A stretch of DNA of 41,989 bases from Gemmatimonadota bacterium. Lineage in GTDB: Bacteria > 4572-55 > J002. Location: positions 1 to 41,989 of the forward strand of contig RFFQ01000040.1 of the NCBI GenBank assembly GCA_003697105.1. Direction: 5' to 3'. Shown here in pieces: positions 13,560 to 21,612 of this stretch. How positions within the stretch are numbered: position 1 is the first letter of the stretch; each line of letters opens with the position of its first letter. Made by a program: the position numbers and the translations under genes. The notes beneath the pieces were generated by a model that ran no database searches, had not been told where the DNA came from, and saw only the letters and a list, made by a program, of their open reading frames with translations.

Positions 13560-13575
13560 TGGTATGAAGGTTGCT
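13560..13575 (+). promoter_or_regulatory. sigma54 (RpoN) -24/-12 promoter, candidate
   Basis: TGGTAT-GAAGG-TTGCT has exact GG-N10-GC spacing. It is preceded by an AT-rich IHF-like segment. Confidence 0.65.
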
Positions 13576-13585
13576 CATGTATAGA

Positions 13586-13749
13586 GTTACCTTTTCTCCT
13601 CCCTAAACTTAAGGTGAAGGCGCGATAGTTGATTCTGGTTTAAGTTACAGGTTTTCCTGCCTCCTTTTCCTGTAAACTTTAACCCCTGTTTTCCGTTTTC
13701 CCCCTACGGAAACACCTCGACACCAGAATTCGACTATCGCGTTTTTTTT
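13586..13749 (+). ncRNA. Candidate structured small RNA with three CU-rich anti-SD-like loops
   Basis: 5' hairpin TTACCTT/AAGGTGA with loop TTCTCCTCCCT. Long closing stem 13620-13639/13722-13742 enclosing two hairpins with loops TTTTCCTGCCTCCTTTT and TTTCCCCCT. Ends in T8. No ORF. Confidence 0.62.
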
Positions 13750-13783
13750 ATTTTATCTCATTATGTTATAAGGAGTTATGATT

Positions 13784-14199: not shown

Positions 14200-14829
14200 T
14201 TACGCCAACCATTGTGAGGCGACTTTAACCGCTCCGGAACGTAAAATCCGGGGCGGTTTTTTCGTTACATCAATCACGGTAGAAGGCATGGCTGAAGAGG
14301 ATTTTCCGGCATCCAAAATCAAATCAATTTGACCATCAAGTTGGTCAAGAACATCGTGGGCAGTTAGCGGAGGCGTTTCTCCAGAGAGATTGGCACTGGG
14401 CGCAGTCAAAGGGCAATTGCAAGCACGAAGTAATGCTAATGCCACCGGGTGGGGCGGAATGCGAATCCCAATGGAATCGCCCCCACCCCGCAATATCGGG
14501 GAAACCGCCGGTTTTGCCGGAAAAACTAGAGTTAATGCTCCGGGCCAATATTCTGCCATGAGCGGCGTTGCACCGGGAGGGATCTCCGTGACAAATTCAG
14601 CCAGAGCATCTGTACTGGGGAGTAAAATCAGGATTGGCTTATTTGCGGGGCGATTTTTAATCTCAAACACTCGCTGGATGGCACGGTCATTCTGGGCGTC
14701 CGCCGCCAAGCCATAAAGAGTTTCCGTTGGGAAGGCAATCACTCCCCCATCTTGGATAATTGTTGCTGCCTGCGCAATGATATTCGGGTCAGGGTATTGT
14801 GGATGAATGCTTAAAAGAGGCGTGCTCAT
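14200..14829 (-). CDS. tsaC: L-threonylcarbamoyladenylate synthase (TsaC/YrdC)
   Basis: AFPTETLYGL, KNRPANKP, WPGALT, APSANLSG, PSTVID and LRSG. Confidence 0.93.
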   Translation of the reverse strand: MSTPLLSIHPQYPDPNIIAQAATIIQDGGVIAFPTETLYGLAADAQNDRAIQRVFEIKNRPANKPILILLPSTDALAEFVTEIPPGATPLMAEYWPGALTLVFPAKPAVSPILRGGGDSIGIRIPPHPVALALLRACNCPLTAPSANLSGETPPLTAHDVLDQLDGQIDLILDAGKSSSAMPSTVIDVTKKPPRILRSGAVKVASQWLA

Positions 14830-14884
14830 CTCTCGAAATTCTCCGGCGTTGGCATTGACATATTCCGCTTATTAATCAAGCACG

Positions 14885-14913
14885 AACCTAAAATCCCTCA
14901 GGATGAAAGTCAA
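14885..14913 (-). promoter_or_regulatory. sigma70-type promoter for tsaC
   Basis: Minus strand TTGACT-N17-TAGGTT, just downstream of the sRNA terminator. Confidence 0.55.
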
Positions 14914-14923
14914 TAACCAAACT

Positions 14924-14955
14924 AAAAAACCCCCGAAGTTTTCACTTCGGGGGTT
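14924..14955 (-). terminator. Intrinsic terminator ending the candidate minus-strand sRNA
   Basis: Minus strand AACCCCCGAAG-TGAAAA-CTTCGGGGG-TTTTTT. Confidence 0.8.
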
Positions 14956-15067
14956 CATGGTGTCGCTCACCTTGTAGCAACAACAGGGGGCAGGTGACAC
15001 ACTGGTTAAGGGGGGGTCACCGTGTATCAGCTTGAACCGCCCACGCCCACTGTTACTACGATGTGAC
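14924..15067 (-). ncRNA. Candidate rod-shaped small RNA with a C7 apical loop
   Basis: Nested pairings TCAC/GTGA, GTAGTAACA/TGTTGCTAC, GGGCGG/CTGCCC, TGATACAC/GTGTGTCA and GGT/ACC around the loop GACCCCCCCTTA. Followed by a terminator; GC-rich segment in an AT-rich spacer. Confidence 0.6.
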
Positions 15068-15077
15068 CTTTTCCTAA

Positions 15078-15093
15078 AGCGAAGAATATGCCA
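15078..15093 (-). promoter_or_regulatory. sigma54 (RpoN) -24/-12 promoter, candidate
   Basis: Minus strand TGGCAT-ATTCT-TCGCT with GG-N10-GC spacing. IHF-like TAACAATAGGTTA at 15110-15122. Confidence 0.58.
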
Positions 15094-15325
15094 ACTTTGA
15101 TAAATAACATAACCTATTGTTATATAACAGGTTACTACATTTTAATTTATCTAGTAGGACTTAAAAATGGGCATAACTCCCATAAAAATAAGCCCACGGA
15201 AAGTGTCAAATGGGTGACATTTCCCACGACAACTTTATAAACCGCTTTTCAGCGATAATAAAAAAGCGGTAGGGGTAATGGTACCTTTACCACTAATTAT
15301 ATTTAAATGGTAGCGAATTAAAGAG

Positions 15326-15799
15326 TTACACAGTTAAGCGCTCCATCAAATTGACCATTTCCAAAGCGGTAAGTGCCGCATCCCAACCTTTATTACCGAC
15401 TTTTGTACCTGCCCGTTCAATCGCTTGTTCGATGGTATCTGTGGTAATTACCCCATAGGTGACCGGTATGTCGAATTGGAGAGCGGTTGTTGCAATACCT
15501 TTGGTGACTTCTGACGCGATAAAATCAAAATGGGGTGTTGCGCCTCGGATGACCGCTCCCACACAAATAATCGCATCATATTTACCGCTTTTTGCCATCT
15601 GTTTTGCCACCAGCGGGATTTCAAACGAACCGGGAACCCACACCCCAGTAATATCACTTTCCGCAACACCGTGCCGCAAAAGACAATCAATGGCCCCCTC
15701 CATTAATCTTTTGGTGATGAGTTCATTAAATCGCCCCATCACCAGACCAAATTTTTTGCCTTCACCAGAATATTGACCTTCGATTATATGAATTGCCAT
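15326..15799 (-). CDS. ribH: 6,7-dimethyl-8-ribityllumazine synthase
   Basis: [27 protein letters not shown] and [14 protein letters not shown]. Confidence 0.97.
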
Positions 15800-16969: not shown

Positions 16970-19900
16970 TTAATATTCGCCGGAGAGCGTCCGGAAATAG
17001 GATTTGATAAGTTCTTCGTACTGTGGTGGATAGCCTTCTTGAATTGCCCGAAGCAAGTCTTCTCGTAAGGTACTTTTGGGTTCGCCTTTATCGGGCGGAA
17101 GTACCGGAGGACTCGTACGTTCCACCTGTTGACCGGTTTTAGACTTCCGGCGTTTGCTGTAATCCTGCTTGCGAAGGCTTCGTTGGGTATCTAACAGACG
17201 GGTCATGATCTTTTGTTGGCGGTCTAGTGTTTCCTGATCGATGTTCTGCTGCTGCAGGTCTTTCATAATCTCATCCATTTCTCCGGCGAGGTCATCGATT
17301 CGACCCAGAATATCTCCATGCTCTGCCATCTCTTTTGCCAGTTCTTCAACACTTTTTTTCACCGCTTCTTGTTCTGCCGCCAGCCGTGCCATTGCCGCTC
17401 GGGCTTCTGCGCTCAGTTGTCCGTCTTGTCCCATCATCTGCTGCAAACCTTGCATACCTTCCCCAATCTGTTGCTGTTGTCCCGCCATATTTTGCAATTG
17501 TTGCATCAGTTGTTGCATTCCACTGGCAGATTGCCCACCTTGCATCTGTTGTTGCATATTTTCAGCAGATTTCATCAGTTCGATGATAGCGGCATTCACA
17601 CTGGCGGTTGCCTCCCGGACAAAGGTAATGGCGTTCCGCCCGCGCCGTTCCACAAGTTGGTTTTGAGTTTCATCCATTTTATCCAGAGCTTCCCCCAGAT
17701 GTTTCCCAATCGCCGGACTGATCATCATACTCTTTTTGGACATTTCAAAAATTTCATCGGTAACCCGGGCGGTGCCATTTCGCAAAATCTGTTGCCAATC
17801 GGCTAAATCGGTATATGTGTCGTAAGTACGCCCTTGTAACCGTTGAATCTCATTACCTAAATTTTCCTCCTCATCGGAGATATGAAGTAAGTCTCGGATA
17901 GCATCTTGCAGACCTGCCATCATCTGTTGCATGCTTTGCATTTGCATTTGTTGTTGCATGTCTTGCAGTTGCTCACTCAGGTCTAGCAATTGACGCATAA
18001 TTTCTTGCTGGGTTTGTTGGGCTTCTTGGGGTTCACCCTGTTGCATCTGCTGGCTACTCTGCTGCATTTGACCGGACAGTTGCTGGTGTTGCATTTGCTG
18101 GGCAAGTTGTTGCATTTGCTGGGCGAGGTCTGATAAGCCGTTTTCTTGCATCATTTGGGCAAGTTCTTCCAATTCCTTTTGTAAGGCGTCGGTCTCTTCC
18201 GCAATTCGCTCTTGATCTTGAGCTAACTCATCTAACTGATTTTGATCGCCGTTTTTTTCTGCTTCTTGCGTACCTTCATTGACCTCATTTTGCTGGCGGG
18301 TCAGCTCCTGTGCTTTTTGTACGGCGGCATCCATTTTTTGTTCCATTTGGATTTGCTTGAGCAAGCCCAACGTGCGTTCGAGCCGTTCCATATATTCTTC
18401 TTGGGTCAAGCTCATATTTTCCATGGCTTTTTGAATTTCGTTCGGATCAAGCTCTTGCATCGCCTCTTGCAATTTTTCCATCGCTTCTTTCATTTCGTCC
18501 GTGGCGATCTCTTCCATCAACTGCTGAACTTCTTCCATTTTTTCCAGCATTTCTAGGGTGGCGGCTTCATTCTGTTCCAGCTTTTCGACCGTTTCTTCCA
18601 ACGATTTGGAAAGTTCCTCAACTTTTTGGGCGAGTTCTTGCTGTTTTTTCAATGCATTTTCCACACTTTTTTTCTGCTCGTATGTCATATCTGGATTTTT
18701 TAAGAGTTCCCGAGCCACATCATCCAGTTGTTCTTTAATATCACGGCTTTCTTCCAGAATTTCTTCGGCATCATCAATTTGATCATCTTGTTGTTCGGCA
18801 ACTTCATCATAAATTTCCATGAGGGATGGGACCCGTGCCGTATAGGTCGGGCTAACCGACCGTTTCGGTCCCGAAACAGTATCATTGTCGTACACCTCAA
18901 CATAATAGATGATAACATCTTCCGGCAGAAGCATAAATTCATTTAAGTCCCACGTAAATTGGTGTGATACCTCCGTTTTAGCTTGACCATCGGTCAATGG
19001 CATCATCTGCTCTTGACCATCATCATTGAGTTTATATTTTAAGTTGATATGGCGTATTCCGTAATCATCCGCCGCCGAAATCCAAACCGGTAGTCTCAAA
19101 TCATTGGTTAAATCAATATCTTGCTCCGGTTCAATGATGCGCACCACCGGATATTCATCCTCCAACACATTAATTTTATATTGAACCGGATTGACACTTT
19201 CCGCATTCAGATAATCCATTAGTTCAATATGGTACGATGTTTCCTCGGTGATAAGAATTTGACGCTTAGCCGAGCGGGCGGTTTGGAGTTTCATTGCTAA
19301 TTGTTCTCCGTTGGCAAAGACAAGAGCCGCCCGGCGGAGCGGATTGTTGGATGTCACGGTTACCCACACCATTGTACCTTTGATGGCGGTAATGTCACCG
19401 TTATTTTCCTCCACCACTTTTTCTGGAATACCGGTGTAGGCCGGGTAAAAATATTCCAGTTTGATGCCGGTGACCAGTGGAAATTCATTGACGGTCACCT
19501 GATAGATGGGGGACGTTACGTGATCCGCTTGCACCGTATAGAAAAAACTCCGTTCAACGCCCTCAATCGTACCGGAAAACAACCGGTCATCCTCCGAAGC
19601 CAACTCTAGCTGATTTTTTAGGGTAGCCGGTGTACGCCCGTATCGCACGCTGACGGTAGCCGGCACTACATTGCCAATCTCAGCGCTCACCGGAACGGAT
19701 GCGCCCCGGACCACCTCGGCATTACCCGGCAATACACGCAAAATTTGAGGTTGGGGTTTTTGGTCTGGCTGTAGCGCAGGATTTAAAAACAGTGCCCACG
19801 ATTGGCGAAATTGATGCGGGAACACCGCTCCAAAAATCAATAAAAACACCAACACCGCGCTCAAATAGCGTCCGTATTTCCAGAGTGATTGCGTATTTAC

Positions 19901-20341
19901 GATGCGCTTAAAATCAACGTTTTCCGTAGCGTGCACCGATCTTTGGAACGCGGCATCGAGCAAAGCAGAGGAATACGGGTTCGATTCAGCTTGCCGCACC
20001 CGCCATAACTGTAACGCATTGATAACATTGTTCCCTAACGTTGGAAAATGATGTTCCACCCGTAAGGCAATTCGTTCTAATGACCGGTTTTGAAGCAGAG
20101 GACGCACTAAAAAGGTAATCAAGGCATAGCTAACCCCACTAAGGGTAAGCCCTAAATAGAGGTAACGCAACAAGGAGGGTAAGGGGAAAATCGTGTTTAC
20201 AATCAAAGCAAACCCAGTAAAACAGCCAAAGACTAGCAGCAACAACACCATTCCGCGGACTGACGTGATGGCAATATCATACCGGCGTACGGCGGCTAGC
20301 CGCTGAATAAGAGTGCGGTACAGGGTTTCATTTTGATGCAT
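16970..20341 (-). CDS. DUF4175-like membrane-anchored protein with Ig-like domains and a long Q/E/M-rich coiled coil
   Basis: Three N-terminal TM helices, YPAYTG, ADDYGI, YYVEVYDND..SGPK and C-terminal YPPQYEELIKSYF. GGAGG RBS. Confidence 0.8.
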   Translation of the reverse strand: MHQNETLYRTLIQRLAAVRRYDIAITSVRGMVLLLLVFGCFTGFALIVNTIFPLPSLLRYLYLGLTLSGVSYALITFLVRPLLQNRSLERIALRVEHHFPTLGNNVINALQLWRVRQAESNPYSSALLDAAFQRSVHATENVDFKRIVNTQSLWKYGRYLSAVLVFLLIFGAVFPHQFRQSWALFLNPALQPDQKPQPQILRVLPGNAEVVRGASVPVSAEIGNVVPATVSVRYGRTPATLKNQLELASEDDRLFSGTIEGVERSFFYTVQADHVTSPIYQVTVNEFPLVTGIKLEYFYPAYTGIPEKVVEENNGDITAIKGTMVWVTVTSNNPLRRAALVFANGEQLAMKLQTARSAKRQILITEETSYHIELMDYLNAESVNPVQYKINVLEDEYPVVRIIEPEQDIDLTNDLRLPVWISAADDYGIRHINLKYKLNDDGQEQMMPLTDGQAKTEVSHQFTWDLNEFMLLPEDVIIYYVEVYDNDTVSGPKRSVSPTYTARVPSLMEIYDEVAEQQDDQIDDAEEILEESRDIKEQLDDVARELLKNPDMTYEQKKSVENALKKQQELAQKVEELSKSLEETVEKLEQNEAATLEMLEKMEEVQQLMEEIATDEMKEAMEKLQEAMQELDPNEIQKAMENMSLTQEEYMERLERTLGLLKQIQMEQKMDAAVQKAQELTRQQNEVNEGTQEAEKNGDQNQLDELAQDQERIAEETDALQKELEELAQMMQENGLSDLAQQMQQLAQQMQHQQLSGQMQQSSQQMQQGEPQEAQQTQQEIMRQLLDLSEQLQDMQQQMQMQSMQQMMAGLQDAIRDLLHISDEEENLGNEIQRLQGRTYDTYTDLADWQQILRNGTARVTDEIFEMSKKSMMISPAIGKHLGEALDKMDETQNQLVERRGRNAITFVREATASVNAAIIELMKSAENMQQQMQGGQSASGMQQLMQQLQNMAGQQQQIGEGMQGLQQMMGQDGQLSAEARAAMARLAAEQEAVKKSVEELAKEMAEHGDILGRIDDLAGEMDEIMKDLQQQNIDQETLDRQQKIMTRLLDTQRSLRKQDYSKRRKSKTGQQVERTSPPVLPPDKGEPKSTLREDLLRAIQEGYPPQYEELIKSYFRTLSGEY

Positions 20342-21535: not shown

Positions 21536-21612
21536 GCGCCCGTAGCTCAGTTGGATAGAGCGTCAGATTCCGGATCTGAAGGTCGTGCGTTCGAATCGCG
21601 CCGGGCGTACCA
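21536..21612 (+). tRNA. tRNA-Arg(CCG)
   Basis: Acceptor GCGCCCG/CGGGCGT, D-arm GCTC/GAGC, anticodon arm TCAGA-TTCCGGA-TCTGA, GTTCGAATC T-loop and encoded CCA. Confidence 0.97.

Follow-up and report, generated by a model that had tools for sequence, protein, structure and literature searches.

The window analysed here, a stretch of 41,989 nucleotides, is contig C105 of genome G000, which comprises 4.18 Mb in 199 contigs and is 96.85% complete. The only sequencing runs that contain the window DNA carry the label hot-springs metagenome. When ORFs of 100 aa or longer are crudely masked, 8.7% of the genome is left as non-coding DNA. Two genomes of the same class (G001 and G002) are present in the species-level collection, and the next nearest genomes listed share only the domain with G000. 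Pfam matches identify three genes on the minus strand of this region: ribBA (16942-15812), ribH coding for lumazine synthase (15326-15799) and tsaC with its Sua5/YciO/YrdC domain (14200-14829). A candidate RNA element lies between ribH, its upstream neighbour, and tsaC, its downstream neighbour, and all four share the minus orientation. The ribH-tsaC spacer covers 496 nt (14830-15325) and holds, in minus-strand order, weak hairpins, a palindrome, a sigma-54-type box, a rod hairpin, a terminator and the tsaC promoter, after which tsaC begins. All letters of the box, rod, apical loop and terminator, which a preliminary description had placed on the minus strand, are found where it put them. The ribH transcript may extend into the rod element. 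Directly upstream of ribBA is an ORF of 1123 aa (16970-20341, minus), the middle of which is long, rich in Q and E and coiled-coil-like.

In both same-class genomes, a nusB-like gene follows ribH at a distance of 0-86 nt (L105 of G001, 1501-2472; L106 of G002, 902-1965). The nusB-like gene of G000 is elsewhere (C69:33049-33396); the ribH-nusB linkage is broken, and tsaC follows ribH after the 496-nt spacer. Since ribH and nusB adjoin in both same-class genomes, the spacer appears to be recent or fast-evolving and specific to the lineage. It contains no nusB remnant, and a blastn comparison of the spacer with plasmids and phages gave no match. The outer boxes of an integron attC site are RYYYAAC and GTTRRRY, 40-140 nt apart. 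Both words are absent from both strands of 14830-15325, and an attC site was rejected. The element region (14876-15133) is identical in contigs of two DNA runs, which belong to one study and one of which is possibly the source of the window. Among the sequencing runs listed for this DNA there is no RNA run. Contigs of run X2 end at 15133 and resume at 15272, while run X1 spans this gap (15134-15271). The gap may reflect poor read cover where the sequence is A+T-rich, or a difference between strains.

Rod, apical loop and terminator

The rod is an imperfect hairpin of 106 nt (14962-15067, minus strand). Its predicted fold contains 39 pairs, 7 of which are G-U or U-G, arranged in about five stacked helices, in agreement with the five nested helices with G-U pairs reported earlier. 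The apical loop, ACCCCCCCUUAA, has 12 nt (15007-15018, minus) with an unpaired probability of about 0.9, and it includes a run of seven C residues at 15016-15010 (C7). This C7 loop is the sole long accessible stretch of the RNA. An exposed C-rich hairpin loop, the trait of C-loop-type sRNAs, is thus present. Behind the rod, the intrinsic terminator (14924-14956, minus) has a G+C-rich stem of 13 pairs (14956-14927), a 4-nt loop and a U6 tract (14929-14924). It is a canonical terminator of the strong type, as had been described. No T run follows the stem on the plus strand, so the terminator acts in one direction. A structured minus-strand RNA very probably ends at this terminator (14956-14924).

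The whole unit of 144 nt (15067-14924) folds with an energy of -65.4 kcal/mol (z -5.54), and no fold as good is seen in 200 shuffles. This strength is owed mostly to the terminator. For the rod alone, the energy on the minus strand is -41.9 (z -2.48; as good in 3 of 200 shuffles), while the opposite strand of the same region gives -36.7 (z -0.38; 63 of 200). The rod structure is therefore real and strand-specific, yet moderate. Among non-coding 108-nt windows of the genome, 112 of 11,934 (0.94%) are as stable as the rod or better, as are 54 of the 1,908 windows matched for GC content. With a G+C content of 50-57%, the rod forms an island within a spacer of 23-42%.

Poly-C runs show no enrichment in non-coding DNA across the genome (158 of 1,709). 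A 14-nt word of the loop is shared with two copies of a MITE-like element; there is no similarity beyond the word, and a link with the MITE was rejected. The MITE-like element measures about 350 bp, has terminal inverted repeats and is found at C24:41592-41938 and C131:17131-17480 (93% identical), with partial copies on C92 and C113. Other repeats of the genome include a REP-like palindrome of 29-33 nt (GGTAGAGACGTTGCA...) on at least 10 contigs. A stretch from C64:8969 to beyond 9045, well over 70 nt, is nearly all C; either a homopolymer tract or an error of the assembly could explain it. Two short ORFs were considered as small-protein genes. One of 42 aa (14872-15000, minus) crosses the terminator and has 28 aa from an internal ATG behind AGGTGA; the other, of 50 aa, is on the plus strand at 15088-15240. 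With an E cut-off of 1, Pfam gave no match for either, and both were judged to be chance ORFs.

Sigma-54-type box and upstream palindrome

The sigma-54-type -24/-12 box, TGGCATATTCTTCGCT, is located at 15093-15078 on the minus strand and reads TGGCAT-N5-TCGCT (GG-N10-GC). Its GG and GC doublets have a spacing of exactly 10 nt. The sigma-54 consensus used here is TGGCAC-N5-TTGCW; compared with TGGCAC-N5-TTGC, the box has two mismatches. As the GC doublet occupies 15080/15079 and the start is taken 12 nt past the C, the predicted +1 is G 15067, where the rod begins. This position is an arithmetic prediction from the box, and in that sense the +1 at the rod start given in the preliminary description holds. 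No TTGACW-type sigma-70 promoter was found between ribH and the rod, where only poor matches (4/6 plus 4/6) occur upstream.

At least one match to the box pattern appears in 17 of 100 shuffles of the 42-kb window, so a single such match in the window could well arise by chance. Over the whole genome, with its 8.7% of non-coding DNA, TGGCAY-N5-TYGC is non-coding at 8 of 27 sites (P 0.0016), or at 7 of 26 when the studied site is left out (P 0.0055). Control words with the wrong spacing are non-coding at 3 of 53 (N4) and 2 of 63 sites (N6), together 5 of 116, and a Fisher test of the N5 box against these controls gives 4e-4 (1.4e-3 without the studied site). The N5-spaced word, with 27 sites in total against 53 for N4 and 63 for N6, is about half as frequent as its controls, suggesting that G000 avoids spurious sigma-54 boxes, chiefly within genes. 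The sub-class TGGCAT-N5-TCGC taken alone shows no enrichment (2 of 10 non-coding, P 0.21). By a cruder weighted score, 27 of 253 sites of the box's class are non-coding, which is near chance.

The genome contains rpoN, recognized by its DNA-binding domain (214 bits), and about 19 enhancer-binding proteins (19 Sigma54_activat matches, each of at least 236 bits). The TCGC variant of the -12 part is also seen at C190:1365, adjoining an activator gene, and a near-identical box, TGGCATTATCTTCGCT, at C88:38011 is 26 nt before an ORF of 81 aa with a strong ribosome-binding site. The operon behind TGGCATTATCTTCGCT (C88:37724-38011; locus L107 2638-4512) encodes this 81-aa protein, which belongs to no Pfam family, and a receiver-PglZ regulator of 524 aa, which we take to be PorX-like. 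Perfect TGGCAC-N5-TTGC boxes, counted among the non-coding sites, precede groES and an hsp20-like gene (C26:22493-22612, C78:29598-29730). An inverted repeat directly upstream of the groES box, TTAGCACTC-N9-GAGTGCTAA, is presumably CIRCE-like. This arrangement suggests sigma-54-driven heat-shock genes with HrcA-type control.

A 25-bp near-perfect palindrome, TAACCT-N13-AGGTTA, lies at 15110-15134, between the hairpins behind ribH and the box, and pairs into a hairpin when the entire spacer is folded. It occurs only once in the genome, and its centre precedes the predicted start by about 55 nt. Possible roles are those of an operator, a site for a regulator or enhancer-binding protein, or a weak hairpin or terminator. 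Sigma-54 enhancers are usually positioned farther from the promoter than this palindrome at -55. A search for an enhancer motif common to the element and the other candidate sigma-54 promoters yielded only A/T-rich words.

The sigma-54 dependence that had been proposed for the element is plausible and stands in part. The presence of rpoN, the set of about 19 activators and the enrichment of the correctly spaced box speak for it; the two deviations and the sub-class count (2 of 10) speak against it. We consider the chance that the box at 15093-15078 is a working promoter to be roughly even.

Separation from tsaC

A sigma-70-type promoter of tsaC, TTGACT-17-TAGGTT, is found behind the terminator at 14885-14913 (minus) and forms a boundary feature outside the RNA. 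Its motif is strongly predictive in G000, whose promoters are plainly of the form TTGACW-17-TAnnnT. TTGACW-N16-18-TAnnnT is non-coding at 339 of 539 sites, against about 19 expected, an enrichment of about 18-fold, and the spacer is 17 nt long in 253 of these 339. The terminator ends at 14924, 95 nt upstream of the tsaC start. With the rod's 3' arm barred from pairing, the predicted fold retains the terminator, and the 5' arm pairs internally. Because the terminator persists, there is no antiterminator logic in the unit. As predicted from its layout, the element is a unit independent of tsaC. Both earlier proposals on this point, that tsaC has its own sigma-70-type promoter past the terminator and that the unit is not an attenuator, agree with these results.

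A neighbouring candidate is present at 13560-13752 on the plus strand. It consists of a TGGTAT-N5-TTGCT word followed by an RNA of 167 nt (-50.0 kcal/mol, z -6.88) with three C/U-rich hairpin loops, one of which contains CUCCUCCC, and with a closing stem plus U8. A CTGAAA-17-TATAAT word, identified by eye, overlaps its box. The candidate ends about 28 nt before a glyoxalase/mce-like ORF at 13778 and therefore resembles a terminated leader more than a free sRNA.

Search for homologues

At the gathering score, the only Rfam match in the whole window is a tRNA (21536-21609), and the element has none. At E up to 10, nothing in 14700-15450 falls below E 0.06, and the chance-level matches are mostly on the terminator stem. 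The 6S RNA (RF00013) and SRP (4.5S) RNA (RF00169) models do not match the element; the genome has its 6S RNA at C165:35085-35279 (61.5 bits) and its SRP RNA at C54:22803-22902 (72.1 bits), both on other contigs. No cis-regulatory Rfam family, riboswitch or leader, matches either. These results agree with the preliminary description, which set the element apart from 6S RNA, SRP RNA and the FMN aptamer.

Neither a DNA search nor the structure model finds a second copy in G000, and the element is not a repeat. The DNA search of 40 other genomes gave no homologue; close relatives are absent from the collections. For the structure search, a single-sequence covariance model (R1) was run on G000, G001 and G002 plus 20 loci. 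Only the element itself matched in G000, the two same-class genomes, 16 metagenome contigs (L007-L022) and four same-class loci. A metagenome scan with TsaC returned 16 loci, the best at 48% identity and with no ribH neighbour, and a scan of genome contigs with RibH returned 80 loci from many phyla, too distant for use. The element is an orphan in all data searched, which says little given that the collections hold no close relative.

Apical loop and its possible partners

Hfq and CsrA were not found in the 96.85%-complete genome. Their absence fits a chaperone-independent C-loop mechanism of the kind described, in the accounts cited below, for 6C and sX13. The preliminary description had the RNA pairing with G-rich ribosome-binding sites or titrating a protein, and the duplex energies of the loop lend the pairing no statistical support. 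Across 3,406 crudely called start regions, the mean is -8.44 kcal/mol, compared with -8.42 kcal/mol for internal gene windows. Duplexes of -14 or below are formed by 299 start regions and 325 internal windows, with no preference for starts. Among real genes, the best target is the ribosome-binding site of a 900-aa ORF at C169:9116. It contains a G7 run and would form 11-13 pairs with the loop; its energy is -27.4 kcal/mol and that of the best control window is -26.3 kcal/mol. The longest exact complementarity of the loop elsewhere in the genome is 14-15 nt, which by a rough estimate (about four 14-mers expected) is no better than chance. In addition, the ribosome-binding sites seen in G000 are of the GGAGG type, for which a run of C is a poor pairing partner. 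Since no target signal rises above the controls, the C7-loop mechanism is an analogy rather than a finding.

Interpretation of the element

We tentatively interpret the element as a lineage-specific sigma-54-dependent sRNA of about 140 nt, transcribed from the minus strand and acting via its C-rich loop, as 6C and sX13 do. We hold this interpretation with somewhat less than even confidence. According to the sequence, sigma-54 RNA polymerase, triggered by one of the about 19 enhancer-binding proteins, would start at or near G 15067. The folding calculations predict that the transcript would form the 106-nt rod with ACCCCCCCUUAA exposed and would stop at U6 (14929-14924), before the tsaC promoter. 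By analogy, the C7 loop would pair with G-rich stretches at or near the ribosome-binding sites of distant mRNAs and block their translation, without Hfq. The sigma-54 start is favoured because the GG-N10-GC spacing is exact and puts +1 on the first base of the rod. It is also favoured by rpoN, the activators, the spacing-dependent enrichment of the box and the lack of a sigma-70 promoter before the rod. A strand-specific rod in a G+C island, a strong one-way terminator and the separate promoter of tsaC favour an sRNA. The sRNA reading is weakened by the lack of homologues, the two-deviation box, the moderate rod, the absence of a target preference and the closeness of the palindrome at about -55.

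The main alternative is a ribBA-ribH transcript with a 3' UTR of about 400 nt, of which the rod and terminator would be the structured end; the box would then be a chance match, and an sRNA might still arise by processing. We regard this as possible but doubtful. It is consistent with the common orientation of ribBA, ribH and the element, and with a box that carries two deviations and belongs to a sub-class without enrichment. The hairpins directly behind ribH are weak as terminators (the one at 15183-15167 has 5 pairs, the one at about 15265-15230 is A-U-rich), so that 14956-14927 is the first canonical terminator after ribH. On the other hand, there are four hairpins between ribH and the box, one of them (15183-15167) with U5, and a tail of this kind is missing behind ribH in both same-class genomes. 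The predicted +1 coincides with the base that opens the rod, and correctly spaced boxes in non-coding DNA are mostly beyond chance (8 of 27 against 5 of 116). There are known sRNAs that are transcribed from a promoter of their own within a 3' region, so the sigma-54 box and read-through from ribH may both feed the terminator.

The element could also be a real independent sRNA, started by sigma-54 or otherwise, that does not pair through its loop with ribosome-binding sites, for example one that binds or titrates a protein specific for C-rich RNA or long duplexes, or one that has a single G-run target. An RNA that is nearly all duplex with one exposed C7, a loop whose complementarity is not enriched at translation starts, and a genome in which Hfq and CsrA were not found would suit such an RNA, and the best gene match covers just one ribosome-binding site, that of the 900-aa ORF at C169:9116. 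This single target does not outperform the best control window (-27.4 against -26.3 kcal/mol) and no candidate binding protein was identified; we find this explanation quite unlikely. Distinctly improbable is functionless debris of the ribH-nusB rearrangement, in which a foldable stretch, a box-like word and a terminator came together by chance. Debris would be an orphan, as the element is, in a place where synteny with the same-class genomes is broken, and about 1% of intergenic windows fold equally well. Box, rod, terminator and the promoter behind them follow one another coherently and at coherent distances, which argues against debris, as does the strand-specific fold. The spacer, moreover, has no nusB remnant, no plasmid or phage match, no attC boxes and no repeat character. 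We consider it highly improbable that the element serves tsaC in cis as a leader or attenuator, with transcripts from the box reading through an overridden terminator. The element does point the same way as tsaC and precedes the start of that gene by 95 nt, and the neighbouring candidate at 13560-13752 does resemble a terminated leader. However, tsaC has the TTGACT-17-TAGGTT promoter of a type enriched about 18-fold in non-coding DNA, blocking the 3' arm of the rod exposes no antiterminator alternative, and no riboswitch or leader family matches. An essential tRNA-modification gene would also be an unlikely client of an activator-dependent promoter.

The sRNA interpretation can be extended to a lineage-invented, activator-gated riboregulator in a cell without Hfq or CsrA, which would form a convergent pair with the 13560-13752 RNA around the mce-like gene and tsaC. 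A sigma-54 promoter plus a C-rich loop plus a terminator would then be a design reached repeatedly and independently. This extension is speculative, and we think it unlikely. If the sRNA is real, it gives an sRNA gene to a candidate lineage that has three species-level genomes in the collection and no known riboregulators, and adds a further sigma-54-gated C-rich-loop RNA outside the model phyla. It would also offer a handle on the control target of one of the about 19 enhancer-binding proteins. Its present value is that of a sequence-only prediction for an uncultured organism, a catalogue entry for such units.

Comparison with known sRNAs

In the 6C/B11 sRNA of Actinobacteria, C-rich loops serve as the seed and form several G-C pairs with mRNAs independently of a chaperone, according to the cited account (PMC6486639). 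Like 6C as described there, the element is a structured RNA with an exposed C-rich loop, and its host has no detectable Hfq. It differs from 6C in having a single C7 loop, at the tip of one long rod, in place of several short C-loop hairpins, no Rfam 6C match and a sigma-54-type promoter, and in coming from an unrelated, uncultured hot-spring lineage. The sX13 RNA of Xanthomonas uses C-rich apical loops to act on G-rich motifs close to translation starts and is reported to do without Hfq (PMC3771888). The element shares the C-rich apical loop, and Hfq was not found in its genome. As far as that report describes it, sX13 has three stems and three loops with 4C motifs; the element has one C7 loop and no Rfam match, and complementary G-rich sites are not enriched at translation starts in its genome.

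Sigma-54-dependent sRNAs include GlmY/GlmZ (PMC3045617), Qrr1 (PMC10162802) and NcS25 (PMC10117139). These are, in the accounts cited, free-standing genes with an intrinsic terminator and a -24/-12 promoter that depends on an enhancer-binding protein, an arrangement that the element is predicted to share. Their promoters and activators are reported from experiments and the RNAs are conserved within their groups, whereas the element has a two-deviation box and no homologue in the searched data. The preliminary description called the element a novel sRNA. This overstates the case, since sigma-54-driven sRNAs with a C-rich loop are a kind already known. Homology connects the element to none of these RNAs. 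By analogy, its layout matches both the sigma-54-dependent and the C-rich-loop sRNAs, and it stands as an unconfirmed addition to that kind, the sigma-54-driven sRNA with a C-rich loop.
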